Shown piece by piece: positions 5,696 to 58,339 of a stretch of DNA of 64,000 nucleotides. A program made the position numbers and the translations under genes. This DNA is from an uncultured Methanosarcinales archaeon (GTDB taxonomy: Archaea; Nanobdellota; Nanobdellia; Woesearchaeales; GW2011-AR15): contig CAYTWW010000002.1 in NCBI GenBank assembly GCA_964441565.1, positions 88,032 through 152,031 on the forward strand, read 5' to 3'. Position 1 is the first letter of the stretch. Each line of letters starts with the position of its first letter. Under the pieces are notes generated by a model, which was not told where the DNA came from, ran no database searches, and was given only the letters and a program-made list of their open reading frames with translations.

Positions 5696-5705
5696 TTATA
5701 TCACG

Positions 5706-6808: not shown

Positions 6809-6809
6809 C

Positions 6810-7202: not shown

Positions 7203-7210
7203 TTTATCTC

Positions 7211-7956: not shown

Positions 7957-7957
7957 T

Positions 7958-9030: not shown

Positions 9031-9036
9031 CTTGGA

Positions 9037-9746: not shown

Positions 9747-9751
9747 TTGGA

Positions 9752-10469: not shown

Positions 10470-11199
10470 TTTTCTCTTCTTTCTTCTTTTTAGCTCTGGC
10501 CTTCTTAGGCTTCGCTTCCTTGACCTCGGCCTTCACCTCAGCCTTGACCTCTTCTGCGATGGCCTCGGCCTCAGTGCCCTTGACCTCTTCGACAGTAGCC
10601 TCGAAAGGCACCATCTTGACGTCGTCCGGGACCCTTGTGTCAGGTGGCATGATGCTTACCTTGATCCCGACGACACCTGTCTTGAGCTTTGCGATGGCGA
10701 ATGCCACGTCCACGCTCGTGAGAGCGAAGTCGCCGCATTTCTTGAGATATCCCTGGTAGAATCTCCAGGTCCTAGCCCTTGCGCTTGGGATCTTTCCTGA
10801 TATCAGGATCTCGATCCCTCTTGCGCCTGAGCTCATGACGTCTGTCATCGACTTGTGGCCGATGCCCTTGAACCTCATGGATCCGAATTTCTCGAGAGAG
10901 TTCGCGATCCTGTCTGCTACGACCTGTGAGACCAGGTTGACGTTAGGGACTTCGCTTATCTCGATCTGCGGATTCTCGAGCGAGAACCTCTTCTTGAGGT
11001 TCTTTGTGAGCTTCTTGATGTTCGATCCTCCTCCGCCGATGATAAGGCCTGGCCTTGAGGCATATATCACGATCTTCTCTCCGAGAGGGGTCCTCTGGAT
11101 CTTTGTGTGCGAAAGTCCGACTCCTCTGAGATTCTCAGCGATATACTCCTGGATCTGGAACTCCTTGATCTTCTGAGTGACGATTTCTCTCTCAATCAT
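10459..11199 (-). CDS. rps3: 30S ribosomal protein uS3 (S3) with an A/E/K-rich C-terminal tail
   Basis: 246 aa with a KH domain (GVGLSHTKIQRTPLGEKIVIYASRPGLIIGGGGSNIKKL) and a C-terminal EAEAIAEEVKAEVKAEVKEAKPKKARAKKKKEEKNEE tail. Confidence 0.9.
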   Translation of the reverse strand: MIEREIVTQKIKEFQIQEYIAENLRGVGLSHTKIQRTPLGEKIVIYASRPGLIIGGGGSNIKKLTKNLKKRFSLENPQIEISEVPNVNLVSQVVADRIANSLEKFGSMRFKGIGHKSMTDVMSSGARGIEILISGKIPSARARTWRFYQGYLKKCGDFALTSVDVAFAIAKLKTGVVGIKVSIMPPDTRVPDDVKMVPFEATVEEVKGTEAEAIAEEVKAEVKAEVKEAKPKKARAKKKKEEKNEE

Positions 11200-11638
11200 T
11201 TTTAACCTTCTCCTGCTCGGCGAGCACGACCTCTACATGTGTCCTCTTCATCTTCCTTCTCCTGAGCCTTCCGAAATGCCAGGGGCTGGAGGCCTTGTGC
11301 GCGACCATATAGACGATGTAAAGATCGCTTCCGAGCCCTTTGGCTCGTGCATTTGATTCTGCGCTCTCGATGAGCGACATGATCATCTTTGCTGCAGTGA
11401 CAGGGTACCTTCCGGCAGCGATGCCTGGCTTGTGGCCTGTATCCCTGTTGAACCTCTTCATAGGCACTGCCTTCTTCTTGATGATGACCTGTGCGAGGAA
11501 TCTCTTGGCAGCGGCTGTGCTCTTGCCCCTGCATGCGCTGCATATCTCGACAGACTGCTTCATGGAGATGCTGAGGTTCTTGCCCACAGCGAAAGCCATG
11601 TTCTCCTTGAGGCCCTGATAGCTGAGAGTGTATTCCAT
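11192..11638 (-). CDS. rpl22: 50S ribosomal protein uL22 (L22)
   Basis: 148 aa, canonical position. Confidence 0.9.
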   Translation of the reverse strand: MEYTLSYQGLKENMAFAVGKNLSISMKQSVEICSACRGKSTAAAKRFLAQVIIKKKAVPMKRFNRDTGHKPGIAAGRYPVTAAKMIMSLIESAESNARAKGLGSDLYIVYMVAHKASSPWHFGRLRRRKMKRTHVEVVLAEQEKVKND

Positions 11639-11640
11639 CT

Positions 11641-12024
11641 TTACCTCACCGAGATCGCTGCGCTCGATTTTGTCGCGCCGATTCCTGGAGCGCTGTGGTT
11701 GACCCTTCTCCTTGTGAGCGAGAACTCTCCAAGGTAGTGGCCGACCATCTCTGCTGTGATCAGGATCGAGACATACTCCTTCCCATTGAAGACCTTGATC
11801 GTCTTGTCTACCATCTCTGGCACGACGACCATGTCCCTGCAGTGGGTCCTGAGGTTCTTGTCATTCTTCCTGATCTTCTCCATGACCTTCTTGTGCTCTT
11901 CAGATGTGCCCCTCTTCAGGGACCTTCTCTGCCTCGAGTTCATCAGCTTGGATACCTCAGGGATAGACATCTGCTGGATCTCGTCCAGCGTCTTTCCCCT
12001 GTAAAAAAATTCTTTCTTAGCCAT
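11641..12024 (-). CDS. rps19: 30S ribosomal protein uS19 (S19)
   Basis: 127 aa, [30 protein letters not shown]-terminal S19 signature. Confidence 0.9.
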
Positions 12025-12029
12025 TTTGT

Positions 12030-12734
12030 CTACCTTTTCCTGCCTGTCCTTTTTGGATGCATCTTACCGACGTTCCTTCCAGGTGGCGCGTTCTTTGGAG
12101 CTATGGTTGGGAATCCCTTCTTGGATGACCTCGATGTTCCGAATGGATGGTCCACTGCGTTCATCGACTGTCCCTTTACTCTAGGCCACAGCTTGTTCCT
12201 TGCCTTCATATAATGGAATCTTGTACCTGCCTTCAGGAAAGGCTTGTCCTTCCTTCCAGCCCCTGCGATGAGCCCTATGCTTGCCCTGCAGCTTGGATTG
12301 AATGATTTCTGCTTCTTGGATGGAAGCTGGACAATGACCTGCCCATCCCTCTGCGCGACGACCTTGGCATACGCTCCTCCTGCTCGGACGAACTTGCCTC
12401 CATCGCCTGGCATAGACTCGATATTGAATACTTCGGTACCGACAGGGATGCTTGACAGCGGCATTACATTGCCTGTGGCGACGCCTGCCTCTGTGCCCAT
12501 CTTGATCATGTTGCCGACACGAAGGCCAGCTGCTGCGATCATGTAGCTCTCCTCTCCGTTGTCGAGCCTGACCTTGGCCAGCGGAGCTGAATGGCCTGGA
12601 CACTTGACGAAATCCTCGATCCTTCCTTCGCTCTCCCCGCGTGCGTACTTGACCTCTGCCTTGTACCTGAAGCTGGGAGCCGTGTATCGCGGGCCTCCCC
12701 TTCCTCGTGCCTGTGAAATTATATTCTTACCCAT
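12030..12734 (-). CDS. rpl2: 50S ribosomal protein uL2 (L2)
   Basis: 234 aa, highly conserved L2 sequence (GRNxxGxITxRHxGGGHK-type region: [38 protein letters not shown]). Confidence 0.95.
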
Positions 12735-12735
12735 C

Positions 12736-12993
12736 TTACATCAGCCCCAATTGGGTGGCGATATCTATGGCCGGCGTCTCGTCAGAGAAGGTGATGTATG
12801 CCTTCTTCCTGGCATCCGGTCCGATAGCGGTGTTGACTTTCTTTATCTTGACCTTGTACATATCTTCGACAGCCTGCTTGATCTCTTTCTTGTCAGCCTT
12901 GATGTCGACGATGAAGACAAGCGTGTTCTTGGATTCCATAAGCCTTATGGACTTTTCCGTCGCAAGCGGATATTTTATGATGTCTGTGACCAT
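12736..12993 (-). CDS. rpl23: 50S ribosomal protein uL23 (L23)
   Basis: 85 aa, located between L4 and L2. Confidence 0.9.
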   Translation of the reverse strand: MVTDIIKYPLATEKSIRLMESKNTLVFIVDIKADKKEIKQAVEDMYKVKIKKVNTAIGPDARKKAYITFSDETPAIDIATQLGLM

Positions 12994-12994
12994 T

Positions 12995-13855
12995 TTACAG
13001 TTCCTTCTTCACGCTTTTTCTCTTTGGCTTCTCGACAGCAGCCTCTGCTGTCTTCTCAAGGAATAGTCCCTCTGAGAATTTCTCGAGCGCCTTGTCTGTG
13101 AATATTGCCAGCCTTCCGCATACGCCGCCTGGCGCAAGGAGCTCTGCATTCACGTTCTTGGCAAGGCAGACCTGGACCCCAGGTATGTTCTTGGCAGCTC
13201 CCATGAGCTTGCATTTCTCTGAGACGATGATCACAGGCCCGATCTTGCTGACCTTCCTCCTTCCCCTCATCTTTGCCTTTCCAGCACCGACCTTCTTCTC
13301 AGATACTCTCTCGAGCTCCTTGTCGAGTCCTAGCTTGCTGAGCAGGTCCAGGACTTCCTTTGTCTTGCTCAGTCCTTCTGTTCCTGCATCGACGACAAGA
13401 GGGTACTCGGCGATGACATGGCCTCTCTTTGCCACAAGCTCCTTCTGGACGCTTGCCGAGAGAGCTGACCTTATCGCTTTCCTCTTCTCCTTGATATTGA
13501 TCTTCTGTGATACGACCTTGTCGATCTGTGGAGGATGTGCCCTCCTTCCGCCGACGGTGTTAGGTGCGACAGCTCCCACCCAGTTGAACCTTGTTCCCCT
13601 GTGGGACATGATCTTCCTTGGGACCCTGGAGATACCGTGGCCATAGGCTGCTTTCCAGTCTCTCCTTCTCCTGGAGAGCTTTCCTTTCTGCCTCCTACCT
13701 GCATCTGGCTTTGCTCCATAAACCTGGGCCTTGTGGCTCCTGATGGCAAGCACTGCCCTCTTGATGAGGTCTGGCCTTATCTCTTCATCGAACTGCTTGG
13801 GGAATGTGACATCCCCCTTTGCTGTTCCTGTGAGTGTCTTGACTGTAGCTTTCAT
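12995..13855 (-). CDS. rpl4: 50S ribosomal protein uL4 (L4/L1e)
   Basis: 286 aa, L4 core with a K-rich C-terminal extension. Confidence 0.9.
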   Translation of the reverse strand: MKATVKTLTGTAKGDVTFPKQFDEEIRPDLIKRAVLAIRSHKAQVYGAKPDAGRRQKGKLSRRRRDWKAAYGHGISRVPRKIMSHRGTRFNWVGAVAPNTVGGRRAHPPQIDKVVSQKINIKEKRKAIRSALSASVQKELVAKRGHVIAEYPLVVDAGTEGLSKTKEVLDLLSKLGLDKELERVSEKKVGAGKAKMRGRRKVSKIGPVIIVSEKCKLMGAAKNIPGVQVCLAKNVNAELLAPGGVCGRLAIFTDKALEKFSEGLFLEKTAEAAVEKPKRKSVKKEL

Positions 13856-13857
13856 TT

Positions 13858-14847
13858 TTATCTGCCCTGCTTGGATGACTTGCTGATATAGACTATGTTC
13901 GGCACTTCCTTTGTCTTCTTAGGGTTAGGCCTTATCGATGGCGTGAAGATGATGAGCCTCTTCTTTGGGCCTGGTACCGATCCCTCTAGGAGGACGTAGT
14001 CGTTCTTGACAGTCCCGTAGTGCGTGATGCCTCCCTCCTGGGAGACCTCGGTCGCATCAGCAGAGATCTTTGCGATCCGCTTGTTGTATTCTGTCCTCTG
14101 GTGGAAACCCATCTTTCCTGAATGCGCGACCCTCCACATGATGTGGGCCTGTGCGCACCATGGACCAAGTGAGCCTGGATTCCTTGTGGACTTCTCAGAC
14201 TTCTTCTGCCTGAGTGATATACCGAATTTCCTGACAGCTCCCTGGAAGCCTTTCCCCTTGGTGATCGCATGCACGTCGACCTGGTCGCCTTCCTTGTAGA
14301 CATCCGATATCCTGATATCCTTTCCGATATTCTGCTTGGCATATGCGAGCTTCTCCTCGACACTGCCCCCCATCCTCAGCTCGAACATCTCAGGCTTCTT
14401 CTTGATGCCTGTGAACTTTGGCTGGGTGTAGACCATGATCCTTACTTCTGTGAAATCCTTTGCGTCGATCGCCTCTAGCTCCTTCGCAGGATCAGTCTCT
14501 TTCTTGGAACCGATGATCTTCCTCTCCGCTTCCTTGTCAAGCTTTGCTCTTATCTCCTTGACGAGCCTCAGCGTAGGTCCCTTCTTGTAGAACCTGACTG
14601 ATGCGATTTTGATCGGAGGACATTCGACTATTGTTATCGGAACACATATCTCTTCCCCTTTTGTCGACGAGTTCTTGTAGTTGTCGACAACCATCATGTG
14701 GGACATCCCGACCTTGTAGCCGGAGAACCCTAGCATCTTGCAATCCTTGACTGCGGGAGCATTCCTCACTCTAGCATATGACCTCTTTGCTCTGACTCTG
14801 GGCCAAAATTGTAGTGATCCTTGCCTTGGGCTTCTTGTTGTTGCCAT
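13858..14847 (-). CDS. rpl3: 50S ribosomal protein uL3 (L3)
   Basis: 329 aa, first gene of the cluster, conserved L3 sequence (GFSGYKVGMSHMMVVDNYKNS...). Confidence 0.9.
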   Translation of the reverse strand: MATTRSPRQGSLQFWPRVRAKRSYARVRNAPAVKDCKMLGFSGYKVGMSHMMVVDNYKNSSTKGEEICVPITIVECPPIKIASVRFYKKGPTLRLVKEIRAKLDKEAERKIIGSKKETDPAKELEAIDAKDFTEVRIMVYTQPKFTGIKKKPEMFELRMGGSVEEKLAYAKQNIGKDIRISDVYKEGDQVDVHAITKGKGFQGAVRKFGISLRQKKSEKSTRNPGSLGPWCAQAHIMWRVAHSGKMGFHQRTEYNKRIAKISADATEVSQEGGITHYGTVKNDYVLLEGSVPGPKKRLIIFTPSIRPNPKKTKEVPNIVYISKSSKQGR

Positions 14848-47196: not shown

Positions 47197-47447
47197 CACG
47201 GGAGCAGGAGATAGAGAAGATCAAGCAGCGCAACAGGCGTGTCGAGCTTGAGAAAGCCTGGGAGACCAGCTTGACCAGGAAGGTCTCCATATCGATACTG
47301 ACTTATGTATTCTTTGTCGTGTTCTTCCACGTATTCGGATTTTCCTACCCTTTGAGGGACGCAGCTGTCCCGACACTCGCTTTCCTCCTGTCCACTGCCT
47401 CGCTTTCTGCAGTGAAGAGGATCTGGCTCTCCAGACGCAAAGATTGA
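47193..47447 (+). CDS. Small membrane protein (2TM-like), hypothetical
   Basis: 84 aa with two hydrophobic helices after a basic N-terminus; ATGA overlap with the upstream gene. Confidence 0.4.
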   Translation: MTREQEIEKIKQRNRRVELEKAWETSLTRKVSISILTYVFFVVFFHVFGFSYPLRDAAVPTLAFLLSTASLSAVKRIWLSRRKD

Positions 47448-47479
47448 TATATAGTAACTGAGTGATATGCCTTATGTCA

Positions 47480-47495
47480 GGTGATTGCCGCTGGC
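47480..47495 (+). promoter_or_regulatory. 16-nt direct-repeat box ggtgattgccgctggc (copy 1 of 2) in the AT-rich region upstream of trpB
   Basis: An exact 16-mer is repeated at 47670-47685. Each copy contains the small palindrome TTGCC-N3-GGCAA. They lie in the 344-bp AT-rich intergenic region 5' of trpB. Confidence 0.4.
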
Positions 47496-47669
47496 AATGT
47501 CATTCTTAAGATAGTCGGAAGCATAATGTTTGGGTATTGGAGTCCTCCAGTTGTCAGATTAAACTAAGATATTGCAAAATAGATATATTTAGTTCCCTTT
47601 ACAAAAATAAAGCATATATTCAACTGGAAAAGCTTAAATATAATCGAAATATACCTTTTTTTCATGAAC

Positions 47670-47685
47670 GGTGATTGCCGCTGGC
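47670..47685 (+). promoter_or_regulatory. 16-nt direct-repeat box ggtgattgccgctggc (copy 2 of 2), about 110 nt upstream of the trpB start
   Basis: See copy 1; this is a candidate operator for a Trp-responsive regulator. Confidence 0.4.
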
Positions 47686-47791
47686 CAGGTATACTTCATC
47701 AATATACTGGACAGAGTGAAGAACCGTTATTCTGAATGTTGGCCTGGTAGTTTACAGGCTGTAGGATCATGTTACAACAATACTAGATGAG

Positions 47792-48952
47792 GTGTTTACT
47801 ATGAAAGGATATTTCGGAGAATATGGAGGCCAGCATGTGCCTGGTGAGATGAAGCAGAGACTTGATGAGCTTGAAAAGGCATTCGAGCAGGCGATCAAGG
47901 ATCCAGCCTTTGGGAGGGAACTGAGGGAACTCTTGAAAGATTATGTAGGAAGGCCTTCGCCGCTCTACCATGCCCACAAGCTTTCGACACGTTTCGGCGC
48001 GAAGATCTACCTAAAGCGAGAGGACCTCAATCACACAGGAGCACACAAGATAAACAACGCAATAGGCCAGGCACTCCTCGCAAAGCGGATGGGAAAGAGG
48101 AGGATGATTGCAGAGACAGGCGCAGGACAGCATGGCGTCGCGACAGCCACAGTGGCAGCACTCATGGGGATGGACTGCGAGATATTCATGGGAGAAGTGG
48201 ATGCTGAGAAGCAGCGGATGAACCTTCTCAGGATGCAGCTCCTCGGCGCGAAAGTCACTGTTGTGAAAGAAGGTCAGCGGACCCTCAAGGAAGCAGTAGA
48301 TGCAGCCCTGGACTCCTACGTCAGGGAGAAGGACACGTTCTATCTCCTCGGAAGCGCTGTCGGACCTCATCCATATCCGACTATAGTCAGGCATTTCCAG
48401 AGGGTGATAGGAGAAGAGGCCAAAGCCCAGATCATGGAGCAGGAAGGCCGCATACCTGATTTTCTTGTGGCATGTGTTGGCGGAGGATCAAATGCCATCG
48501 GCCTCTTCCATGCATTCTCAGGCTCCAGCGCTAAGATGATAGGAATAGAGCCTGCCGGAAGAGGGCTTGGAACAGGGAAGCATGCAGCAACCCTGACTCT
48601 TGGAAAGCCAGGCATCATCCATGGCTTCTATTCCTACCTGCTGACAGACAAGGACGGAAAGCCTGCAGATGTCTACAGCATCGCATCAGGTCTTGATTAT
48701 CCTGGTGTCGGACCTGAGCACAGCCATCTGAAGGACATAGGAGCAGCTGAATATGTGACTATCACAGACTCAGAGGCTATCGATGCATTCCATATCTGCT
48801 CAGAGGAGGAAGGCATAATCCCTGCGCTTGAGAGCAGCCATGCCCTCGCCCATGCCTTCAAGCTGGCAGAAAGGAACAGGGACAGCATCATAATAGTCAA
48901 CCTATCTGGAAGGGGGGACAAGGATGTCGATTTTGTCTGCAGCATGTCATAG
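47792..48952 (+). CDS. trpB: Tryptophan synthase beta chain (TrpB); no trpA adjacent
   Basis: 386 aa. PLP-lysine region [35 protein letters not shown] and GGGSNAIG are canonical TrpB motifs. Confidence 0.95.
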
Positions 48953-49002: not shown

Positions 49003-49782
49003 TTGATTGAAATGAAGCTCGAAGATGCGGCAAGGGCTGTACGGCAGATCTATCTGGATAGAGGGATCAATCTCAGCATGTACCTGGAGAAAGAGCTGCC
49101 TATGGATATCGATATCAAGGAAATCTTCCCAAGAGAGACTTTGCATCTCTTCGATCAGTACAGAGATTCTCCCGAAGGAGGACTTTCATTTTCAGAAGGA
49201 TTCGACTTCGAGAAGAGCAACAGGCAGCGAAGGCAGATACTCTATCTCCAGGAGAAGGCTGCTGAGCTTATCAGAGAAGCCGCTCCAGAGAAGATACTCT
49301 CGCTTGGGATCGGCGATGGTGTGACAGCTGCGAAGTACGCAGGCCATGCCACGTTTGTCACAGGCATAGATATGCATGCAGAGTTCCTGGCCAAGGCACG
49401 TTCATCGATACCTGGGCTTGTGCGAGTCCAGGCTGATCTTGAATCTCCCCTCCCTCTCCCGGATGCATCATTCGACGCAGCAGAATGCATCATGGTCAGC
49501 CATCATATCAGGCGATTCAGGGAGTTGATATCAGAAGCTGCACGGATGCTGAGACCAGGAGGGATATTCATCCTTGGAGACATCTGCGACATGACTCTCG
49601 CAAGTGGGAATATGACATTCCCTGAGGCGCACATGCATCCGCCTTTTCATGGCATCGAATTCTATCGAAGCCACTCAAGGATGATGGAAGAGCTGTCTGT
49701 CTTTTTCGATCAATATTTCTATGAGAGAGTATGCCCAAGCCTGGTACTTATTGGAGGGAAGAGACATGGACAACATCGATGA
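49003..49782 (+). CDS. Class I SAM-dependent methyltransferase
   Basis: 259 aa, motif I ILSLGIGDGVTAAKYA and post-I acidic residue pattern, LRPGGIFILGDI. Confidence 0.7.
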   Translation: MIEMKLEDAARAVRQIYLDRGINLSMYLEKELPMDIDIKEIFPRETLHLFDQYRDSPEGGLSFSEGFDFEKSNRQRRQILYLQEKAAELIREAAPEKILSLGIGDGVTAAKYAGHATFVTGIDMHAEFLAKARSSIPGLVRVQADLESPLPLPDASFDAAECIMVSHHIRRFRELISEAARMLRPGGIFILGDICDMTLASGNMTFPEAHMHPPFHGIEFYRSHSRMMEELSVFFDQYFYERVCPSLVLIGGKRHGQHR

Positions 49783-50479
49783 CAGGATATTCTCGCTTTT
49801 CCGCAGACGTAGGAAGCGCTCCGAGCACAGGATAGATATGCTGCAGCTGAACACCCGCAAGACCGGCACCCCAATATTCTACATCATGGGCTATGGATCA
49901 GCGCCGTCCCTTTTCATGCCTGCTGCATCCAGGCTCAAGCATCCTGTCTTCGGTCTCACATATCCTGACAGCATCCTCTCAGGCGATGCAGATCAGACCC
50001 TGAAGACATTCGAGCTCATTGACAGGGCATTCAGCGCATCTGGTGACGGTGAAGCCTATACATTCGGCACATCCCTCGGGAGCTTCATCTCAGTATTCCT
50101 CGCATCAAGGCACAAGAGGATAACCAGGATGATACTCAGCGTGGGAGGAGCAAGCGTCGCTGAGACTGTATGGAACAACCCCAACATGTCACTGATAAGG
50201 CTTAAGCTTGAGAGGAAGTATTCCCTCTCTGATCTCAAGGAGAAGTGGGCTGATATCGAACCAGGCAATCTTGCCACAGAAGTCAGGGACAGGAAGATCC
50301 TTATCTATGAATCGAAGACTGACATATTGGTCAGGCATGAGAACCAGAAAGCGCTGACCCAGGCGCTGTCTGCAGGCAACCAAGTCAAGGTCAGGACAAG
50401 CAGGATGTTTGGCCACTACATCACTGCGATCAGGAGCGCGTATGATTTCAAGGAGATCCAGGATTTCTATGATAGCTGA
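49766..50479 (+). CDS. Alpha/beta-hydrolase-fold protein (tentative)
   Basis: Start re-chosen at MDNIDDRIF. A GxSxG-like nucleophile elbow (FGTSLGSF) and a C-terminal His are present; 237 aa. Confidence 0.5.
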   Translation: MDNIDDRIFSLFRRRRKRSEHRIDMLQLNTRKTGTPIFYIMGYGSAPSLFMPAASRLKHPVFGLTYPDSILSGDADQTLKTFELIDRAFSASGDGEAYTFGTSLGSFISVFLASRHKRITRMILSVGGASVAETVWNNPNMSLIRLKLERKYSLSDLKEKWADIEPGNLATEVRDRKILIYESKTDILVRHENQKALTQALSAGNQVKVRTSRMFGHYITAIRSAYDFKEIQDFYDS

Positions 50480-51122
50480 AAATATCTACGACCTTAAGAG
50501 GGAGCTTGGCGATGTCACCCTTGTCGCAGTCACAAAGACAAGACCGGCAGAAGATATCATCGCAGCCTTGGATGCTGGTGCTGGATTCATCGGTGAGAAT
50601 CGCGTCCAGGAGGCAGTCGGAAAATTTCCAGGCATAGCTAAGAAGATTGAAGAGAAGGATGCAGAGTTCCACCTGATAGGTCATCTCCAGACTAACAAGG
50701 TGAAGCAGGCTGTCCATATATTCGACGTCATCCAGTCCGTCGATTCACTTAGGCTGGCAGAGGAGATCGATAGGAGAGCCTCTGAGACTGGCAAGATCCA
50801 GCGCATACTGCTCCAGGTCAACATCGGCCAGGAATCACAGAAATCAGGAGCTGATCCGGAAGCTGCGATAGATTTATTAAAGCATCTGACCAAGCTCAAT
50901 TCCATCAAGGTCGAAGGGATGATGTGCATCGCTCCTTATTCAGTTGACCCAGAAGACTCAAGACCATATTTCAGGAAGATGCAATCCCTCTTCATCGAGG
51001 CAAACAGGATCCTTGGCATGAAGACTCTCTCGATGGGCATGACAGGCGACTATCGTGTCGCCATGGAGGAAGGCTCCACGATGGTGAGGATCGGCACAGG
51101 AATATTCGGTGGACGAACATGA
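50469..51122 (+). CDS. yggS: YggS-family PLP-binding protein (PLP homeostasis; alanine-racemase-N-like fold)
   Basis: Start at MIAENIYDL. Contains LVAVTKTRPAEDIIAALDAGAGFIGENRVQE, HLIGHLQTNKVK and MGMTGDY. Confidence 0.85.
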   Translation: MIAENIYDLKRELGDVTLVAVTKTRPAEDIIAALDAGAGFIGENRVQEAVGKFPGIAKKIEEKDAEFHLIGHLQTNKVKQAVHIFDVIQSVDSLRLAEEIDRRASETGKIQRILLQVNIGQESQKSGADPEAAIDLLKHLTKLNSIKVEGMMCIAPYSVDPEDSRPYFRKMQSLFIEANRILGMKTLSMGMTGDYRVAMEEGSTMVRIGTGIFGGRT

Positions 51123-52864
51123 GGATCATAATATCAAAAGAGCTCAGGCAAAGGTATCCTGGATTCAATGCGCATGCAGTAGTGTGCAGAGATGTGAAGG
51201 CACGAGAACTTGACAGCGAAAGGAAAGCTGTCGAGCTATCGATCAGGAAAAGCACGAACACGTCCGATATCCATCTTATACGAGATTATAACGAGTTCTT
51301 CAGCCAGTATGGAAAGAAGGTCCCTCTTGAATTCCAGATGGACTCGATCATCAAGGGGAAGAATATCTCAGCAGAGAATCCTCTTGCTGAGCTTTTGTTC
51401 ATGCTGGAGATGAAGCATGCAACGATGATCTCAGGCCATGAGCTGAGCCTGGCAGATCAGGAGCTAAGGTTCGAGATCGGGAAAGGGACTGAAGAATATG
51501 TGAAGCTCGGTGGCAAGCCGCAGAAGATCAAAGAGGGAGATATCCTACTCAAGAGCTCAGGCAGGATCCTCGCATCCCTGCTCTATGGCCCTGATGATAG
51601 CTCAAAGATGAACAAGTCTACAAAGGACATCGTATTTGTCATCTGGTTCTATAAGCCAGCACCTGGCGGCCTTGTCGAAGCGATTGCCTCTGACATTGAG
51701 AGCAATCTCCACGGTTCCACAGACCATTCTGTCGCGTCAGAGGATGAGAAGGAATACACAGTCACACCTTGGGAGGTCAAGGGTGACATCGATTATGGCA
51801 AGCTGATAAAAGATTTTGGCGTGAAGCCAATCGACCAGAAGATCAGGGAGAGGATCAGGAAGATCACTGAAGATGAGCACATGTTCATCAGGAGGAATAT
51901 CTTCTTCGCGCATATGTACATGAACGAGCTGCTCGATGAGTATGAGAAAGGCAATAAGTTCTATCTCTACACAGGACGTGCGCCATCAGGACCGGTCCAT
52001 CTTGGCCACCTTATCCCCTGGGTCTTCACGAAGTGGCTCCAGGATGCTTTTGATGTGCATCTTCTGTTCCAGATACCGGACGAAGAGAAGTTCCTATTCA
52101 AGAAGAACCTTACATTGAAGGAGACGAAGGACTGGGCATACGAGAATATCCTGGATATAATCGCAGTAGGCTTTGATCCTATGAAGACGAAGATATTCCT
52201 TGACACAGAATATGCAGGGCATATGTATGGGCTTGCCTGCCAGGCAGCGAAGAAGATGACATTCTCGACTATCAGGAGCACATTCGGGTTCAATGATTCG
52301 AACAACATCGGGACAATATTCTATACTGCCATGCAGTCAGTCCCTGCATTCCTCCCAACTGAGATGGAAGGGAAGAAGACCCGTGTGTTGATTCCATGCG
52401 CGATAGATCAGGATGTGCATTTCAGGCTCACAAGGGATGTGGCGGAGAGTCTTGGCTATCCAAAGCCTGCGACGATACTATGCAGGTTCCTCCCAGCCCT
52501 TTCAGAAGGAGGGAAGCTATCAAGCTCAGGAGAAGCAGACACGACGATCTGGGCTACAGACACACCTGCCCAGGTCAAAAAGAAAGTCCTCAGATATGCA
52601 TTCTCTGGCGGACGCGACACTGTCGAAGAGCACAGGAAGCTGGGAGGGAACCCTGATATCGACGTCGCATATCAATGGCTGACATTCTTTGAGGAGGATG
52701 ACAGGAAGCTCAAGCAGGTGCATGATGACTACAGATCAGGCAAGCTGCTCTCAGGAGAACTGAAGCTCATGCTGGTGGAGCAGCTCAACAGATTCCTGGC
52801 AGAGCATCAGAAGCGCAGGCATGAGGCGAAGAAGCATATCGAGAAGTTCATGCTGAGGGATTAG
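51119..52864 (+). CDS. trpS: Tryptophanyl-tRNA synthetase (archaeal/eukaryotic type) with an N-terminal B3/4-domain fusion of about 200 aa
   Basis: The C-terminal roughly 380 aa is a class I aaRS with HIGH-like PSGPVHLGHL and KMSKS-like KLSSSGE. The N-terminal part, MRIIISKELRQRYPGFNAHAVVCRDVKAREL...IRDYNEFFSQYG...GDILLKSSGRILASL, matches the stand-alone B3/4 (PheT B3/B4-like tRNA-binding/editing-fold) family pattern. Confidence 0.85.
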   Translation: MRIIISKELRQRYPGFNAHAVVCRDVKARELDSERKAVELSIRKSTNTSDIHLIRDYNEFFSQYGKKVPLEFQMDSIIKGKNISAENPLAELLFMLEMKHATMISGHELSLADQELRFEIGKGTEEYVKLGGKPQKIKEGDILLKSSGRILASLLYGPDDSSKMNKSTKDIVFVIWFYKPAPGGLVEAIASDIESNLHGSTDHSVASEDEKEYTVTPWEVKGDIDYGKLIKDFGVKPIDQKIRERIRKITEDEHMFIRRNIFFAHMYMNELLDEYEKGNKFYLYTGRAPSGPVHLGHLIPWVFTKWLQDAFDVHLLFQIPDEEKFLFKKNLTLKETKDWAYENILDIIAVGFDPMKTKIFLDTEYAGHMYGLACQAAKKMTFSTIRSTFGFNDSNNIGTIFYTAMQSVPAFLPTEMEGKKTRVLIPCAIDQDVHFRLTRDVAESLGYPKPATILCRFLPALSEGGKLSSSGEADTTIWATDTPAQVKKKVLRYAFSGGRDTVEEHRKLGGNPDIDVAYQWLTFFEEDDRKLKQVHDDYRSGKLLSGELKLMLVEQLNRFLAEHQKRRHEAKKHIEKFMLRD

Positions 52865-52867: not shown

Positions 52868-53233
52868 TCATCGGGTCAGCGCCTGATATATGCCATAGAT
52901 GACTGCGCCACTTATCCCTGCTCCTAGTCCCATTTTGATCAGTTCTTTTTTTATGCTATATACAATATGATCCGGGACATCCTGGATATTCATATGCTCA
53001 AGAGATCTCCGTATTTGAGCGCAGGAACCGGGTTTTCTCCCTTCCATACGTCTTGCAAGATAGATCATATTCTCCAGTCCTTGATTCATGGAAGGCTTAG
53101 GCTGACTGTTCATGACAAGCTCGAGTTGCAGAGGAAGATAATGATGTGACAGATAATCTGTAAGTTGGTCAAGCAACATGCAAGGATGATATGATTTTCC
53201 TTTATTTAACCCTTCCGATGTATCTCTTGACAA
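52868..53233 (-). CDS. Hypothetical protein
   Basis: 121-aa ORF; 32-nt overlap with the upstream membrane-protein gene; weak. Confidence 0.35.
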   Translation of the reverse strand: MSRDTSEGLNKGKSYHPCMLLDQLTDYLSHHYLPLQLELVMNSQPKPSMNQGLENMIYLARRMEGRKPGSCAQIRRSLEHMNIQDVPDHIVYSIKKELIKMGLGAGISGAVIYGIYQALTR

Positions 53234-54182
53234 ACATCAGAGAATAGACCTGGAAGAACACTCTGACAGGAAGCGCGAATAGCGCTGTGAGGAAGACGAA
53301 GGCGAAGACCATGATGACGAACAGGAGGCCACCGACCACGATGAGGGGAGCAAGCATTATCTCTGCCGCCTGATAGAACATATAGCCTATGCCGAAGATG
53401 ATGATGCCCACAAGCAGGAATACGAGAAGCAGCATTATGGCGATCAAAAGCTCTGCAATCACTCCGCCTAAGCCCAGTAGCAGGCGCATCAGCCAGTACA
53501 TAGCCAACTCTCCGAACTTCCCTTTAGCCTTCCCTTTGAACTTCTTCCATGCCTCTGTTAATGGGACATGATCAATATACATCACAGGGACAAGGAATTC
53601 ATCTACTACAAACAAGACTAAACCTGTCGTGATAGCGAAAAGAAGGAAACCGAACCCCATAGGCAGGAGAAACCACAAGTTGAAGTCTGCAAGCTCTCCT
53701 GCGAAGAATGATAGCAGGAGCGGAAGCAGTATCAACGCGAATGCTGTCATAGATATGAATCCGAATATCGTCCTGAAAAGAAATAGGCTCATACCCAGCC
53801 CCCTGTACCTGTCGAAGCTTTTCCTTATCCTTATCTCTCCCTTCTCGACACCCTCTACAAATGAGAACAGGAGGACTGAACTCAGGAATGATAGCAGAAG
53901 CCCGACCAGCAGGAGGATGGCGATGAGGATCCCGAATATCGCACCATGCTGATTGATTGCTGATAGTGCCTCGTTGTTGAATTGGATGATCGACTGCCTG
54001 AGATCCAGTGTTCCATGATCTCCTCCGGATCCTCCTGAATTACTGCCTGAATAATTGCCGCTGCTGCCTGACTTGGAGAATGAAAGGATCGCCATCCTGA
54101 TCCAATATCCCTTCTTGAATGGGAACAATAGCTTCTTCATCCTCTGGAATGCAGGACTGATGATCTCAGGAGCGAGTGTCAT
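53202..54182 (-). CDS. Multi-pass membrane protein, hypothetical (Gly/Ser-rich N-terminal loop)
   Basis: 326 aa, about 7 TM helices, SGSSGNYSGSNSGGSGG low-complexity segment. Confidence 0.5.
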   Translation of the reverse strand: MTLAPEIISPAFQRMKKLLFPFKKGYWIRMAILSFSKSGSSGNYSGSNSGGSGGDHGTLDLRQSIIQFNNEALSAINQHGAIFGILIAILLLVGLLLSFLSSVLLFSFVEGVEKGEIRIRKSFDRYRGLGMSLFLFRTIFGFISMTAFALILLPLLLSFFAGELADFNLWFLLPMGFGFLLFAITTGLVLFVVDEFLVPVMYIDHVPLTEAWKKFKGKAKGKFGELAMYWLMRLLLGLGGVIAELLIAIMLLLVFLLVGIIIFGIGYMFYQAAEIMLAPLIVVGGLLFVIMVFAFVFLTALFALPVRVFFQVYSLMFVKRYIGRVK

Positions 54183-55551: not shown

Positions 55552-58023
55552 GTGAGCCAGCTAAGTCACATCATGGTCTCTTCTCTCGAGAAGAACTCAA
55601 GGAAGAACCTCGTCTCCCTCAAAGGCGATTTTGTCTACAGGAGATATTCCTATGGCTCCATCCTGGAACTCTCAAAGAAGTTCTCGAAGTTCCTCGAACA
55701 GAATGGGATCAGGAAAGGGGACAGAATCTGCATATGTTCATACAACTGCCCGCAGTATTTCTTTGTGATGCTGGGTGCGATGTTCTCGGGTGTGATCATT
55801 GTGCCTGTCGATTTCGCTACATCTGACCAGTTGACCGGTACCTTCATGAAGCTCACTAGGTGCAGGATGCTGATCACAAGCATCAAGAAATCCATCAGCA
55901 CATCAGTGCCTACGTTCTATGTCGAGGAGCTTGAAGAGATGCTATCGCCTCTCACAAAGAAAGAGCCTGTCCATGTCGGAGATGACCACCTGGTAGAGAT
56001 CCTCTTCACATCAGGGACCACCGGAGATCCGAAAGGAGTGATGCTCACACATGATAACATCTGCTCGAACATGATGTCCGCGCTCTCTGTCTTCAAGGTA
56101 TATAGGACCGAGAAGCTGCTCTCCCTCATTCCGCTCTCCCATATGCTCGAACAATGCACAGGCTTCTTCGGCGTGATATTCGCCGGAGCTGAGACGACAC
56201 AACTGAGGTCGAGGAGGCCAAGCGAGATCCTCAAGGTCATACGCTATGAGAGGACCACGATGATAGTGGCTGTCCCGGCATTCTACAATCTCTTCAAGCG
56301 GAAGATCGAGGAGAAGGCAGAGAAATCAGGCAAACTGCAAGACCTGAGAACCCTTCTTACACTGGCTCAGAAGCTTCCAATGCCTGCCAGGAGGCTCCTA
56401 TTCAGGAAGCTGCACAGCACATTCGGAGGAAAGCTCAGGTGCGTAGTGAGCGGCGGAGCATCCCTCCCTCCTGAGACTGAGCTCTTCTGGGACAGGATAG
56501 GGATCCCAGTCATAAACGGCTACGGCTTGACCGAGACAAGCCCGATACTATCGATAAACACCCTTGGGCAGAGGAGATTCGGAAGCGTTGGCAAGCCTAT
56601 ACCAGGTGTACGTCTGCGCGTCTCTGAGGAAGGCGAGATCCTTGCCAGAGGACCAAACATCACGCAAGGCTATTACCTGAATCCAAAGGCGACCTCCTCG
56701 CTCCTGCAGAAAGGATGGCTGCACACAGGCGACTGCGGTGAGATAGACAAGCAAGGTTATGTCTACATCAAAGGGAGGATAAAGAACATGATCCTGAAGG
56801 CCAACGGGCTCAATGTCTACCCTGAGGATATAGAGTTGCTGCTCGACAGCCACCCCTTGGTGAAGGAATCATGCGTGCTGGGCATCGAGAAGGGGACAGA
56901 TGTGATCATAACAGCCATCTTGATCACAAGAGGTATGTCTTCGAACAGCGACCTGAAGGAGATGATAGACAGCATAAACAAGAAGCTTGAGCAGCATCAG
57001 CAGATACAGGATTTCTGCGTCTGGCCAAGACCTGATTTCCCAAAGACTCATACCATGAAGATAAAGAGGCTCCTTGTGGCATCCCAGCTGCAGAGATGCG
57101 AGGCTGGCATCGAAAGCTCTGATGAGCTGTCCTCGATCCTTTCAGAACTATCTCATAAGGATCATATCAAGGACGAGCACCTCCTTTATTCTGACCTGGG
57201 ATTCGACTCTCTGAAGACTATCGAGCTATCCACATTGATTGAGGAGAAGCTCGCTGTCGATATCGATGAGGCGATGATAGATGCAAAGACGACTGTGCGG
57301 TCGCTGAAGGAGATCATCAGCAGATCCGAGCCGAGTAGCGAGCTCCCTGTCTCACGTCTCATGTTCTCCCCGGTCTTCAAGCCATTCAAGCTGATACTGC
57401 CTGAGATAGCTTATCTTGTCACTTCACGGTTCTTCTCAAGCTTCAGGATTGAGGGCAGGGAGAATCTCTCAGATGTGAAAGGTCCTGTCATAATCATAAC
57501 CAACCATACAAGCCATCTTGATATCCCTACGATCACAAAGCACCTGCCGTTCCATCTCAGGACAAAGATGGCGACTGCTGCAGCAGCTGACTATTTCTTT
57601 GTCCAGGATGGAAAGCTTATATCAAGAGCTGTGGCCTTCATGTTCAACCATCTCCTCGGCGCCTTCCCTATGTCAAGGGACAAGAAAGCCCTGCGCCGGA
57701 CATCTCTGAGAAAAAGCCTGGAATTCATAGGCGAGATAGCTGACAAGGGATGGTCGCTTGCCATAGCTCCTGAAGGGACCAGGAGCAGGACAGGCAAGAT
57801 GGGGCACTTCAAGAACGGGATCGGGATCATCGTGAAAGAGACAGGCTATCCTGTCATCCCCGTGAAGGTCAAGGGCCTGTTTGACATCATGCCGCCAAAG
57901 ACCCATTTTCCGAGGAAAAGAGGCCCGGTCGAGATAGTCATAGGGAAACCTGTCAGGTTCTCAAGCACAGACAGTCCTGTGATGATAACAAGAGAACTCG
58001 AAAGCATAGTGAGGAAGCTATGA
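55552..58023 (+). CDS. Tri-domain fusion: fatty-acyl-AMP/CoA ligase (AMP-binding) - acyl carrier protein - 1-acyl-sn-glycerol-3-phosphate acyltransferase (PlsC/LPLAT)
   Basis: 823 aa. AMP-binding core FTSGTTGDPKGVMLTH, then GYGLTETS. The ACP-like segment LLYSDLGFDSLKTIELSTLIEEKL carries the DSL phosphopantetheine site. The C-terminal acyltransferase has NHTSHLDIP (HxxxxD) and APEGTRS. Confidence 0.85.
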   Translation: MSQLSHIMVSSLEKNSRKNLVSLKGDFVYRRYSYGSILELSKKFSKFLEQNGIRKGDRICICSYNCPQYFFVMLGAMFSGVIIVPVDFATSDQLTGTFMKLTRCRMLITSIKKSISTSVPTFYVEELEEMLSPLTKKEPVHVGDDHLVEILFTSGTTGDPKGVMLTHDNICSNMMSALSVFKVYRTEKLLSLIPLSHMLEQCTGFFGVIFAGAETTQLRSRRPSEILKVIRYERTTMIVAVPAFYNLFKRKIEEKAEKSGKLQDLRTLLTLAQKLPMPARRLLFRKLHSTFGGKLRCVVSGGASLPPETELFWDRIGIPVINGYGLTETSPILSINTLGQRRFGSVGKPIPGVRLRVSEEGEILARGPNITQGYYLNPKATSSLLQKGWLHTGDCGEIDKQGYVYIKGRIKNMILKANGLNVYPEDIELLLDSHPLVKESCVLGIEKGTDVIITAILITRGMSSNSDLKEMIDSINKKLEQHQQIQDFCVWPRPDFPKTHTMKIKRLLVASQLQRCEAGIESSDELSSILSELSHKDHIKDEHLLYSDLGFDSLKTIELSTLIEEKLAVDIDEAMIDAKTTVRSLKEIISRSEPSSELPVSRLMFSPVFKPFKLILPEIAYLVTSRFFSSFRIEGRENLSDVKGPVIIITNHTSHLDIPTITKHLPFHLRTKMATAAAADYFFVQDGKLISRAVAFMFNHLLGAFPMSRDKKALRRTSLRKSLEFIGEIADKGWSLAIAPEGTRSRTGKMGHFKNGIGIIVKETGYPVIPVKVKGLFDIMPPKTHFPRKRGPVEIVIGKPVRFSSTDSPVMITRELESIVRKL

Positions 58024-58331
58024 GGGCCGGTATCGACATAGTCCACATCCCAAGGATCAAGGCAATGCTTGATGATCCAGAGCTTCTCGGGAGGACATTC
58101 ACGCATTCTGAGCTCAGGGACAAGCGGCCTGAGCATCTTGCTGGCATCTTCGCAGCCAAGGAAGCCTTTCTCAAGGCTTCTCAGGTCAAGGTATCCAGAT
58201 GGGATGAGATCGAGATAGGATCAAAAGGCAAGCCAAGGATCATCCATAGCTTCGCAGATAGATGCAAAAGTATCGACCTCAGCATATCCCATGACGGAGA
58301 CTATGCTGTGGCTATAGTCATCATTCCTTAG
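58020..58331 (+). CDS. acpS: Holo-[acyl-carrier-protein] synthase (AcpS-type 4'-phosphopantetheinyl transferase)
   Basis: 103 aa. MRAGIDIVHIPRI ... FAAKEAFLKA ... ISHDGDYAVAIVI is typical of AcpS. ATGA overlap with the upstream ACP-containing fusion. Confidence 0.8.
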   Translation: MRAGIDIVHIPRIKAMLDDPELLGRTFTHSELRDKRPEHLAGIFAAKEAFLKASQVKVSRWDEIEIGSKGKPRIIHSFADRCKSIDLSISHDGDYAVAIVIIP

Positions 58332-58339
58332 CCAAAGTG

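Follow-up and report, generated by a model that had tools for sequence, protein, structure and literature searches.

A tryptophanyl-tRNA synthetase fused to a CtdA-like B3/B4 domain in DPANN archaea, a candidate for proofreading of tRNA-Trp

Tryptophanyl-tRNA synthetase (TrpRS) is counted among the synthetases without a proofreading domain, and we know of no editing domain described for this enzyme. It nevertheless mischarges Phe under Trp scarcity (the W>F 'substitutants') and accepts hydroxy-Trp and many Trp analogues. Here we analyse a stretch of 64,000 nucleotides, called the window below, from a DPANN archaeon with a tiny genome. In this window a TrpRS is preceded, within the same reading frame, by a domain of the B3/B4 type, a kind whose usual task is to remove misattached amino acids from tRNA. 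The gene and its parts are located as follows:

51119-52864, + strand: B3/4-TrpRS fusion gene, 581 aa, whose ATG overlaps the YggS stop codon (ATGA)
51119-51733, + strand: N-terminal CtdA-like B3/B4 domain, residues 1-205 (Pfam, phmmer, AlphaFold, Foldseek)
51734-51748, + strand: short, disordered linker, residues 206-210 (pLDDT <50)
51749-52864, + strand: TrpRS body of the archaeal/eukaryotic type, residues ~211-581 (NF008927, Foldseek)

A preliminary description of the locus had given exactly this reading frame, and had recognised in it a complete archaeal/eukaryotic-type TrpRS core with the motifs PSGPVHLGHL and KLSSS. Both points hold. Pfam PF00579 is matched at E 4e-25, and over residues 210-580 the protein lies above the NCBIfam cut-off, with 513.2 bits against 478 for NF008927 and 264.6 against 176.75 for TIGR00233. 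The HIGH-type motif GPVHLGH occupies residues 291-297 (nt 51989-52009), with HLGH at residue 294, and the KMSKS-type motif KLSSS residues 466-470 (nt 52514-52528). A Foldseek comparison of the body with yeast and human TrpRS gives 48% identity, an rmsd of 1.3 Å and a TM (target) of ~0.9. No second trpS was found within the 64-kb window. Judged by these signatures, the TrpRS part is probably a working archaeal TrpRS. The catalytic body is a full member of the canonical family (NF008927; yeast 3kt3, human 2qui, P. horikoshii 3jxe), from which the window protein differs by its additional N-terminal B3/B4 domain of ~205 aa. The N-terminal appendages known from TrpRS, among them the eukaryotic WHEP domain, have no relation to B3/B4. 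A start-codon scan of the linker, residues 206-210, found no in-frame Met and no SD-like start, so TrpRS cannot be made without the N-domain. The AlphaFold model of the full-length 581-aa fusion has a pLDDT of 92.8 and a pTM of 0.70, the latter meaning that the relative orientation of B3/B4 and TrpRS is uncertain.

The identity of the N-terminal domain requires more care. The ~200 aa in question had been assigned to B3/4, and the family, the phmmer relatives and the fold all uphold this, but the window copy's own Pfam score does not reach the threshold. Against Pfam B3_4 (PF03483) the window protein scores 18.5 bits at full length and 21.1 bits with the N-domain alone, below the gathering score of 29.3 bits. 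All 14 of the 14 aligned fusion N-domains match B3_4 at E <1 (best E 6.7e-11), and three other fusions, scanned separately, exceed the gathering score (L008 with 35.1, L009 with 36.9 and P0156 with 42.8 bits). Because these other N-domains match, the family falls within B3_4, with the window copy as a divergent member; the window copy itself scores below the threshold, and it is the family and the structure that support its assignment. Word-indexed homology searches gave almost nothing, whether started from the N-domain or from a 14-sequence profile, and an exhaustive HMMER search was needed. This phmmer search returned 264 relatives, nearly all of them stand-alone B3/4 proteins of 215-235 aa with the generic annotation 'DNA/RNA-binding domain of Phe-tRNA-synthetase-like protein'. 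Profile scans of the window protein detected no other domain beside B3/4 and the TrpRS body, and none of PheT B1, B2, B5 or B6-8.

The ties to characterised proteins come through profile searches and the fold search only. With phmmer the N-domain had no match among PDB sequences, profile searches against the PDB retrieved PheRS-beta alone (best E 2.6e-4), and when the window N-domain and its stand-alone relatives were combined in one profile, CtdA was reached by sequence at E 0.36. AlphaFold modelling of the N-domain, which had been suggested as a check, gave a confident B3/B4 fold (pLDDT 94.9 for residues 1-205). The best Foldseek matches of this model are the CtdA structures 9mkl_A, 9mkl_H and 9f7e_A, at full length and with E 2.4e-15 to 3.8e-15, a TMq of 0.79-0.82 over 222-227 aligned columns and ~15% identity. 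PheRS-beta editing domains come next, at E 1e-8 to 1e-5. More than being B3/4-like, the N-domain is a member of the stand-alone B3/4 family (COG3382-type), which is known today as the family of CtdA aminoacyl-tRNA deacylases.

CtdA is a canavanyl-tRNA(Arg) deacylase of the free-standing B3/B4 family, with structures 9mkl and 9f7e (PMC10018355, PMC12449066, PMC12268091). The window domain shares with it the whole-domain fold and the length, with a Foldseek TM of ~0.8 over ~226 columns, and its relatives are likewise single-domain proteins of ~220-230 aa, 'PheRS beta subunit-related' and COG3382-type. In contrast, it is only ~15% identical to the characterised CtdA-1, it is fused to a synthetase whereas CtdA is free-standing, and it is tied to TrpRS and Trp genes whereas CtdA is tied to ArgRS and canavanine. 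CtdA is an experimentally proven aminoacyl-tRNA deacylase, and the specificity of an archaeal clade, CtdA-2, is unassigned (PMC12449066). The window N-domain may correspond to this clade.

Whether the domain keeps the residues of a known editing site was an early question, and for PheRS the answer is negative. Of E. coli N254, H265, G318 and E334, the domain keeps no more than the glycine in the G-rich loop. In the HMMER profile alignment to 3pco_B, N254 stands opposite F94, H265 opposite S105 and G318/G319 opposite Y156/G157, and E334 faces a hydrophobic residue. The pocket and catalytic residues of CtdA are N105, G116, E118, C166, Q173 and I189 in S. enterica and Y104, N105, E118 and E191 in P. 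canavaninivorans. Of these, the pair N105/G116 would land on F94/S105 by spacing alone, at 15% identity and E 0.36, which suggests that it is probably not conserved either. The N-domain has a conserved pattern of its own (F94, E97, S105-G106-H107-E108, D141, S153, Y156-G157-P158, T168 and W176). The four most conserved segments of the family, F94, S/A105-G-H/Q-D108, Y156-G157-P158 and W/Y176, align with the pocket-lining N254, H265, G318 and E334 regions of PheRS, and Q73, F94, E97, D108, D141 and G157, in pocket-lining segments, are kept across fusions and stand-alone proteins. At other positions the stand-alone relatives hardly vary but the fusions do: of the 14, Y57 is kept by 3, Y68, D146 and D159 by 4 each and H189 by 1, and 8 have Q in place of H107. 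Two lysines, K44 and K99, are newly invariant in the fusions. The relaxation of polar residues could reflect either an altered specificity or a loss of catalysis. With pN of 0.24-0.47 against pS of 0.76-0.87, and zero changes among near-identical variants, the N-domain is to all appearances under purifying selection, and it evolves 2-3 times faster than the TrpRS core; the pairs available are all saturated at synonymous sites, so these values are no proper dN/dS estimate.

The architecture extends well beyond the window. A phylogenetic survey, as had been proposed, yielded ~17 further fusion proteins in DPANN MAGs (GCA_043803745.1 and the JAZDLQ, JAMPXQ and JAAXVZ assemblies among them), spanning at least three TrpRS subtypes (NF008927, NF008925 and NF008926), together with a split form in which the B3/4 gene lies 17-41 nt upstream of trpS (L015 and L022). 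This true split arrangement in related archaea lends some substance to the suspicion that an assembly, frameshift or gene-calling artefact has merged an adjacent stand-alone B3/4 gene with trpS, as a lost stop codon between the two could imitate a fusion. However, the 581-aa ORF is present in identical form on 5 contigs, which come from three or more independent metagenomes, the ~17 other fusion proteins stem from independent assemblies and have a continuous, alignable linker, indels are absent from near-identical variants, and the fusion model is confident across both domains. An artefact is thus extremely improbable and this reading is effectively refuted already; N-domain and TrpRS form one real gene. 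The fusion had been called unusual, and the literature searched contained no prior description of a B3/4-TrpRS fusion, while databases label the proteins merely 'tryptophan--tRNA ligase'.

The trees bear on how often the two domains came together. In the N-domain tree, 15 of 16 fall in one clade with 88% bootstrap, and the N-domain of P0019 clusters with the split form, outside the main fusion clade. A single fusion event with monophyletic TrpRS cores is rejected, as the cores are scattered among unfused TrpRS. From this scatter it follows that the domain was lost several times over, and that close relatives can do without it. Across the TrpRS subtypes, the split form and P0019, the linkage of the domain to TrpRS recurs independently. 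The same B3/4 subfamily also carries a TDO-like fusion partner, and the TDO-like-B3/4 protein adjoins a divergent TrpRS gene of the bacterial type; one stand-alone B3/4 member sits at the end of trpB-trpA. A Trp linkage of the whole stand-alone B3/4 family was considered and rejected, with trpS nearby in 1 of 80 metagenomic loci and trp genes in 0 of 80. On this neighbourhood evidence, the Trp link is apparently restricted to the B3/4 branches near the fusions.

In the window, the genes upstream of the fusion are:

47801-48952, + strand: solitary trpB, tryptophan synthase beta subunit (TIGR00263, 570 bits)
49003-49782, + strand: SAM-dependent methyltransferase (Pfam Methyltransf_11)
49766-50479, + strand: alpha/beta-hydrolase-fold protein (weak Pfam Abhydrolase_1 match)
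50469-51122, + strand: YggS-family PLP-binding protein (TIGR00044, 196 bits), directly upstream of the fusion and translationally coupled to it

These profile scores bear out the clustering of the fusion with a solitary trpB and YggS, as first described. Translation of trpB probably starts with the ATG at 47801, which is preceded at 7 nt by GAGGTG as a Shine-Dalgarno sequence, and the JGI gene call is 383 aa long. It had also been stated that trpA, C, D and E are not nearby; a tblastn search with the operon proteins of a relative found no homologue of trpE, G, D, C, F or A in the 64 kb. In L004 and L009, YggS again directly precedes the fusion, and a hydrolase occupies the position that it has in the window; in L007, YggS lies one gene away from the fusion. 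In the L007 operon a methyltransferase comes after trpA, and the window methyltransferase is 33% identical to it (tblastn, E 4e-40). The conserved order is a full trp operon, trpB or trpB2, followed by a methyltransferase or hydrolase, then YggS and then the fusion, and the L008 cluster includes a tRNA-Trp gene. By this synteny the window cluster is most readily seen as the 3' remnant of a trp operon layout that is intact in a relative.

The cluster is headed by a leader with a repeated box:

47448-47800, + strand: AT-rich intergenic leader/promoter region upstream of trpB (GC 0.36 overall, 0.29 between the boxes)
47480-47497, + strand: box 1, GGTGATTGCCGCTGGCAA, a palindrome ATTGCC-GCT-GGCAAT, then TATA-like TTCTTAAGATAG
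47670-47685, + strand: box 2, GGTGATTGCCGCTGGC, an exact copy of the first 16 nt of box 1

The AT-richness of the leader (GC 0.36 against 0.49 for the window) and the two exact 16-nt boxes, GGTGATTGCCGCTGGC at 47480 and 47670, were part of the preliminary description and are as it reported them. Box 2 follows box 1 at a distance of 190 nt and precedes the trpB ATG by 131 nt. The window contains only these two copies, even when up to 3 mismatches are allowed, and the uniform-model expectation for an exact pair within the leader is ~1e-5. Elsewhere in the window there is a strong AT skew at 3-16 kb, which is an archaeal ribosomal-protein operon. The box recurs upstream of the cluster in two other genomes, L008 (twice) and L004, once beside a tRNA-Trp gene, and all three box-bearing genomes carry the fusion; it was not found at L005 and L006, the other fusion loci with upstream DNA available. 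By this recurrence the box is evidently a conserved cis-element in three genomes. A reading of leader and boxes as an RNA element of the riboswitch, T-box or attenuator type was considered and is unsupported. No Rfam family matched the leader, either at the gathering score or with E relaxed to 1, and the predicted folds of five box copies are inconsistent and no stabler than shuffles (z -0.05 to -1.2). By inspection, the box hairpin is unlike the tRNA-Trp anticodon arm. The sole small ORF starting right after box 1 reads MSFLR* and has, by inspection, 0 Trp codons, so a Trp-leader-peptide attenuator is unsupported as well. The box appears to act as a site on the DNA, beside TATA-like elements, and not as a structure in a leader RNA.

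Of the readings considered, the likeliest is that the N-domain acts in cis in the post-transfer proofreading of mischarged tRNA-Trp, a proposal that in our judgement has an even chance of being right. TrpRS would load tRNA-Trp with a near-cognate or non-proteinogenic amino acid, the mischarged 3' end would move to the B3/B4 pocket, and the ester bond would be hydrolysed there. Candidate substrates are Phe under Trp scarcity, hydroxy-Trp and Trp analogues made by a promiscuous TrpB from foreign indoles. The fusion is the last gene of a Trp-supply operon, represented by a full trp operon in a relative and by trpB with the methyltransferase, hydrolase and YggS in the window, where trpB might serve indole salvage; the conserved palindromic DNA box beside TATA-like elements heads this operon. 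Deacylation by the N-domain, the substrate on which it would act and a part played by the box in regulation are what we infer here. As the PheRS editing residues are absent and the polar set of the stand-alone proteins is partly relaxed, editing by the N-domain is plausible and not firmer than that. The error modes of TrpRS, Phe-tRNA(Trp) and hydroxy-Trp, are documented, and a known editing domain is absent (PMC8942854, PMC11415595). A wider reading, which we hold more tentatively and at somewhat below even chances, would make this the first TrpRS with its own editing domain. A CtdA-2-type B3/B4 deacylase would have been captured by DPANN TrpRS at least two or three times independently, to clear from tRNA-Trp non-cognate aromatic or analogue amino acids, either Phe under Trp scarcity or analogues arising when a solitary TrpB/TrpB2 salvages environmental indoles.

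The relaxed polar residues may also be taken to mean that the domain is a non-catalytic appended module, which binds the acceptor end or body of tRNA-Trp for capture and retention, or holds and protects Trp-tRNA(Trp). The newly invariant K44 and K99 would suit this function, as would the 2-3 times faster evolution of the N-domain than of the core and its repeated loss from close TrpRS relatives. Many appended domains of synthetases work in this way, and the annotation of the stand-alone members as nucleic acid-binding points in the same direction. But the Q73, F94, E97, D108, D141 and G157 segments are kept in fusions and stand-alone proteins alike, and the closest characterised homologues are enzymes and not binders (PMC12449066). 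Pure tRNA binding would moreover leave the TDO-like fusion and the trpBA-adjacent stand-alone genes unexplained, and we consider this alternative unlikely, though it deserves attention.

Another alternative is a ligand sensor, in which the former editing pocket would bind free Trp, indole or a Trp-related metabolite and would either tune TrpRS or regulate the Trp-salvage operon, possibly via the box. The fusion regularly lies within clusters for trp biosynthesis or salvage, a TDO-like domain is fused to the same B3/4 subfamily, a trpB-trpA pair ends with a stand-alone member, and the box heads the cluster in three genomes that all bear the fusion. On the other hand, we know of no B3/B4 protein that senses small molecules or regulates by binding DNA, the profile scans detected no helix-turn-helix or similar DNA-binding motif, and the box is missing at L005 and L006. 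A sensor seems to us quite improbable, clearly more so than a tRNA-binding module.

If proofreading is the function of the domain, mischarging of tRNA-Trp would truly be a problem on which selection acts in nature, and it would become possible to assign a substrate class to the archaeal/CtdA-2-like branch of free-standing B3/B4 deacylases, as its first functional lead. A TrpRS with a deacylase fold offers an experimental handle on whether errors on tRNA-Trp are edited in nature, and which ones, and this handle is strengthened by the fused, split and unfused forms in close relatives. An editing module that discriminates Trp analogues would matter for genetic-code engineering, which relies on the promiscuity of TrpRS and TrpB. 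The box, tRNA-Trp, trpB, YggS and TrpRS together might further serve as a compact model for how DPANN archaea with reduced genomes regulate Trp salvage.

A precedent for the attachment itself is the B3/B4 of PheRS-beta (E. coli PheT 3pco, T. thermophilus 1pys, P. horikoshii 2cxi), which is homologous by Pfam B3_4, profile and fold and is likewise an editing-type domain covalently attached to an aminoacyl-tRNA synthetase. There, however, it is embedded in a class II beta subunit, while the window domain is N-terminal on a class I monomer-type TrpRS body; PheT is a B1-B8 multidomain protein with PheS as its partner, while the window protein carries the B3/4 domain alone, with F94 and S105 where the PheRS pocket has N254 and H265. 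The synthetase pairs described as fused or split include neither TrpRS as a partner nor the joining of B3/B4 to a class Ib synthetase. The pattern is nevertheless the one seen with AlaRS/AlaX, ProRS-INS/YbaK/ProXp and ThrRS/ThrRS-ed, where a deacylase fold is free-standing, adjacent (here L015 and L022) or fused (here the window), with patchy loss.

The protein encoded by the fusion gene joins a B3/4 domain to a TrpRS body, and its residues ~210-580 are a genuine archaeal/eukaryotic-type TrpRS.

Features of the fusion
51119..52864, + strand: B3/4-TrpRS fusion gene, uninterrupted ORF of 581 aa
fusion residues 291-297: GPVHLGH motif, TrpRS signature
fusion residues 466-470: KLSSS motif, TrpRS signature

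The TrpRS body matches NCBIfam NF008927 (513 bits, cut-off 478), TIGR00233 (265 bits, cut-off 177) and Pfam PF00579 (E 4e-25), and the model of the fusion fits onto crystal structures of TrpRS from yeast and human (48% identity, rmsd ~1.3 Å, TM(target) ~0.9). Together with the two motifs, these matches bear out the archaeal/eukaryotic-type core named in the preliminary description. The full-length AlphaFold model has a pLDDT of 92.8, falling below 50 at residues 206-210 only, and a pTM of 0.70. The ATG of the fusion overlaps the stop codon of the preceding YggS gene (ATGA), and near the domain junction there is neither an in-frame Met nor a start codon preceded by SD, so that the TrpRS body is not translatable without its N-terminal extension.

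The N-terminal ~200 aa had been placed in the stand-alone B3/4 family. Taken alone, the window protein reaches 18.5-21 bits against Pfam B3_4, below the gathering score of 29.3, and for this reason the assignment was put to a fuller test. It falls short for the single copy but stands for the family: 14 of 14 aligned fusion N-domains match B3_4 (best E 6.7e-11), and other fusion proteins, scanned one by one, score 35-43 bits. PheRS-beta B3/4 editing domains are the sole matches of the N-domain profile among PDB sequences. An exhaustive phmmer search (1.8 billion representatives, E up to 1e-3) gave 264 matches, nearly all of them single-domain proteins of 215-235 aa that are themselves B3_4-positive and are named 'PheRS beta subunit-related protein' or 'DNA/RNA-binding domain of Phe-tRNA-synthetase-like protein'. 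The predicted structure of the N-domain alone (pLDDT 94.9, pTM 0.90) has as its top PDB fold matches 9mkl and 9f7e (E 2.4e-15 to 3.8e-15, TM 0.79-0.82, identity ~15%), the two structures solved for CtdA by crystallography, with the whole length covered; CtdA is a deacylase of canavanyl-tRNA(Arg) that occurs as a free-standing protein. Next come PheRS-beta editing domains (E 1e-8 to 1e-5). Homology and predicted fold thus identify the N-terminal 205 aa as a complete CtdA-type B3/B4 module, and the placement in the stand-alone B3/4 family was right. The stand-alone family includes an experimentally shown aminoacyl-tRNA deacylase (PMC10018355; PMC12449066), and its archaeal members are assigned to an uncharacterised clade, 'CtdA-2', for which the authors suggest another specificity (PMC12449066).

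The doubt whether two genes had been joined by an artefact is removed. The identical 581-aa ORF is found on 5 contigs from at least 3 JGI metagenomes, with two near-identical variants (1-2 substitutions, all within the TrpRS body), and a full-length search returned 13 more full-length fusions at 48-57% identity as well as truncated ones; we regard an artefact as extremely improbable. Three further fusions (L008, L009 and P0156) were added by a genome scan and exhaustive search. Wherever the source is labelled, it is a DPANN MAG (Woesearchaeota, 'Nanoarchaeota' or unclassified archaeon), and databases give the proteins the plain name 'tryptophan--tRNA ligase'. Synthetase-fused editing domains and B3/B4 deacylases are both already known kinds. 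We found no description of a CtdA-type domain on TrpRS in the searchable literature, and the CtdA papers PMC10018355, PMC12449066 and PMC12268091 do not mention such a fusion. The architecture is real and recurrent, and appears to be undescribed so far.

Neighbour joining places the N-domains of 15 of the 16 DPANN fusions in a single clade (supported in 176 of 200 bootstraps), next to the stand-alone protein P0122. The N-domain of another fusion, P0019, lies outside this main clade and groups with the stand-alone gene of L015, one of two loci with a split form.

Split forms
L015 4649-6461: 222-aa B3/4 gene, 17 nt upstream of an unfused TrpRS gene
L022 910-2350: second contig with the split form (B3/4-to-trpS gaps across both loci 17-41 nt)

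The unfused TrpRSs of the split form are 68-70% identical to the TrpRS core of the window (68% for L015). In P0156 the B3/4 domain is joined to another subtype of TrpRS (NF008925, 490 bits against 451), and in L008 an N-domain of the main clade sits on a further TrpRS body (NF008926, 332 bits against 320). The tree of TrpRS cores does not group the fusions as monophyletic: they are interspersed with unfused DPANN TrpRSs, which are often their nearest neighbours (distance 0.14-0.17), and one such unfused locus has no B3/4 gene nearby. The simplest reading is that fusion or capture took place at least two or three times, with repeated loss besides; the association is recurrent, yet the domain dispensable. 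The N-domain evolves 2-3 times faster than the TrpRS core, and its pN of 0.24-0.47 against a saturated pS of 0.76-0.87 points to purifying selection.

Residues conserved in at least 87% of the stand-alone relatives are Y57, Y68, Q73, F94, E97, A105-G106-H107-D108, D141, D146, G157-P158-D159, T168, Y176 and H189. The fusions retain Q73, F94, E97, D108 (E in the window), D141, S153, G157, T168 and W176, and have K44, K99, I142 and L155 as invariant residues of their own. Other positions are relaxed: Y57 survives in 3 of 14 fusions, Y68, D146 and D159 in 4 of 14 each and H189 in 1 of 14, and H107 is replaced by Q in 8 of 14; the window N-domain itself retains Y57, H107 and D159. In a HMMER alignment to E. 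coli PheT, the PheRS beta subunit, the conserved segments fall on the four PheRS editing-pocket segments, but the PheRS residues as such are not kept: N254 lies opposite F94, H265 opposite S105 and G318/G319 opposite Y156/G157. The comparison included E334, which we take to be an editing-pocket residue of E. coli PheT. The other PheRS pocket residues used are cited in PMC12449066. The three B3/B4 subclasses have no catalytic residues in common (PMC12268091), so that comparing pocket residues cannot decide catalysis. A conserved pocket persists in remodelled form, and this would fit either a changed specificity or degeneration.

The genes that flank the fusion make up a conserved, Trp-related cluster.

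Gene order at fusion loci
Window: trpB (47801-48952), methyltransferase, alpha/beta-hydrolase, YggS, fusion; DUF7544 downstream
L007: complete trpE-G-D-C-F-B-A, methyltransferase, YggS, methyltransferase, fusion
L004: hydrolase, YggS, fusion; adjoins a nine-gene aromatic amino-acid biosynthesis block
L005: trpB2-type gene (TrpB-like, NF009057), fusion
L008: tRNA-Trp(CCA), trpB, HD-domain protein, fusion
L009: hydrolase, YggS, fusion, DUF7544
L006: no trp genes; triple RPE-B3/4-TrpRS fusion

When the L007 operon proteins were searched against the 64-kb window (tblastn), trpB, the methyltransferase, YggS and the fusion were the sole matches, and within this span the solitary trpB reported earlier beside YggS and the fusion holds. 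The cluster looks like what is left of the 3' end of a trp operon, as would suit indole salvage. Two other loci also tie the B3/4 subfamily of the fusions to Trp. A stand-alone member lies directly 3' of trpB-trpA at L017. At L013, a 634-aa protein (5767-7671) combines a weak tryptophan 2,3-dioxygenase-like (TDO) region (residues 206-325) with a B3/4 domain of this subfamily at its C-terminus (hhalign probability 99%); its gene is immediately followed by a divergent bacterial-type TrpRS (7828-8859; TIGR00233, 178.9 bits against 176.75), and the two together may make up a system linked to tRNA-Trp. The Trp link is not general, since of 80 metagenomic loci that carry stand-alone relatives, 1 has trpS and none has trp genes.

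The L006 protein (8001-10472; P0009, 823 aa, on 8 contigs) has a ribulose-phosphate 3-epimerase part scoring 212.0 bits against a cut-off of 212.6, and an internal Met at the B3/4 start makes separate translation of the downstream part possible. At L008 the tRNA-Trp(CCA) gene (3946-4021) lies 40 nt upstream of trpB, in the order box, box, tRNA-Trp, trpB, HD-domain protein, B3/4-TrpRS, the box being a 16-nt repeat. In two genomes a DUF7544 polytopic membrane protein gene is convergent with the fusion and directly downstream of it (window 53202-54182, minus strand; L009 3803-4774).

What might the fused domain do? In the best-supported reading, to which we give about even chances, it would act in cis as a post-transfer proofreading module for tRNA-Trp. 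This reading draws on the domain's homology to two groups of deacylases proven by experiment, on its occurrence in fused, split and free form, a pattern that is classic for synthetase editing factors, on the recurrent association, on purifying selection acting on the domain, and on its obligatory co-translation with TrpRS. TrpB converts substituted indoles into Trp analogues, so clearing such analogues would be attractive for an indole salvager, analogous to canavanine clearance by CtdA. Documented errors of TrpRS are Phe-tRNA(Trp) when Trp is short (PMC8942854) and hydroxy-Trp (PMC11415595).

A non-catalytic tRNA-handling appendage, which we consider rather unlikely, would suit the relaxation of polar residues, the newly acquired lysines and the fact that the domain was lost repeatedly. 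Less probable still would be a regulatory sensor of Trp or indole.

The two exact 16-nt boxes described in an AT-rich leader are confirmed: the window has two exact copies of GGTGATTGCCGCTGGC, at 47480 and 47670, both in a leader with a GC of 0.36, and no further copies at up to 3 mismatches.

Box copies
Window 47480-47497 and 47670-47685
L008 3572-3589 and 3836-3853: upstream of tRNA-Trp and trpB
L004 6471-6487: ~95 nt upstream of the hydrolase-YggS-fusion operon

The box is common to three different DPANN genomes, always upstream of trpB or the hydrolase-YggS-TrpRS cluster, and among the 98 loci examined it was found at no others. Its consensus is rGYGATTGYCGCTGGCAA, with the palindrome ATTGCC-GCT-GGCAAT, and a TATA-like T/A-rich element follows 8-20 nt after four or five of the 5 copies. 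An RNA role finds no support: Rfam gives no match to the leader and boxes, even with E allowed up to 1, and the predicted folds are inconsistent between copies and no better than shuffles. We therefore interpret the box as a putative transcription-factor site, conserved at the DNA level and lying beside the Trp-cluster promoter. Just upstream of the leader, an 84-aa membrane-protein ORF contains an imperfect 20-nt direct repeat (47365-47407; CTGTCCCGACACTCGCTTTC / CTGTCCACTGCCTCGCTTTC, 23-nt spacing).

The strong AT skew without long ORFs at 3930-14847 proved ordinary, being that of an archaeal ribosomal-protein operon on the minus strand (L3, L4, L2, S3, S4e, L5, S8, L6, L32e, S5), which confirms an archaeal host. 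In an Aenigmatarchaeota-labelled MAG (L098 8041-10401), a 786-aa PheRS beta encoded 400 nt downstream of an unfused TrpRS matches Pfam B3_4, B5 and tRNA_synthFbeta and also tRNA-synt_2c and tRNA_SAD (AlaX-like editing); this PheT would then have two editing modules, the second of AlaX type. Window 55552-58335 (L001 14434-17213) encodes an 823-aa protein with AMP-binding, PP-binding (weak match) and acyltransferase domains, followed by a phosphopantetheinyl transferase (ACPS) gene, and is probably a lipid or acyl-activation module, unusual for a reduced DPANN genome.
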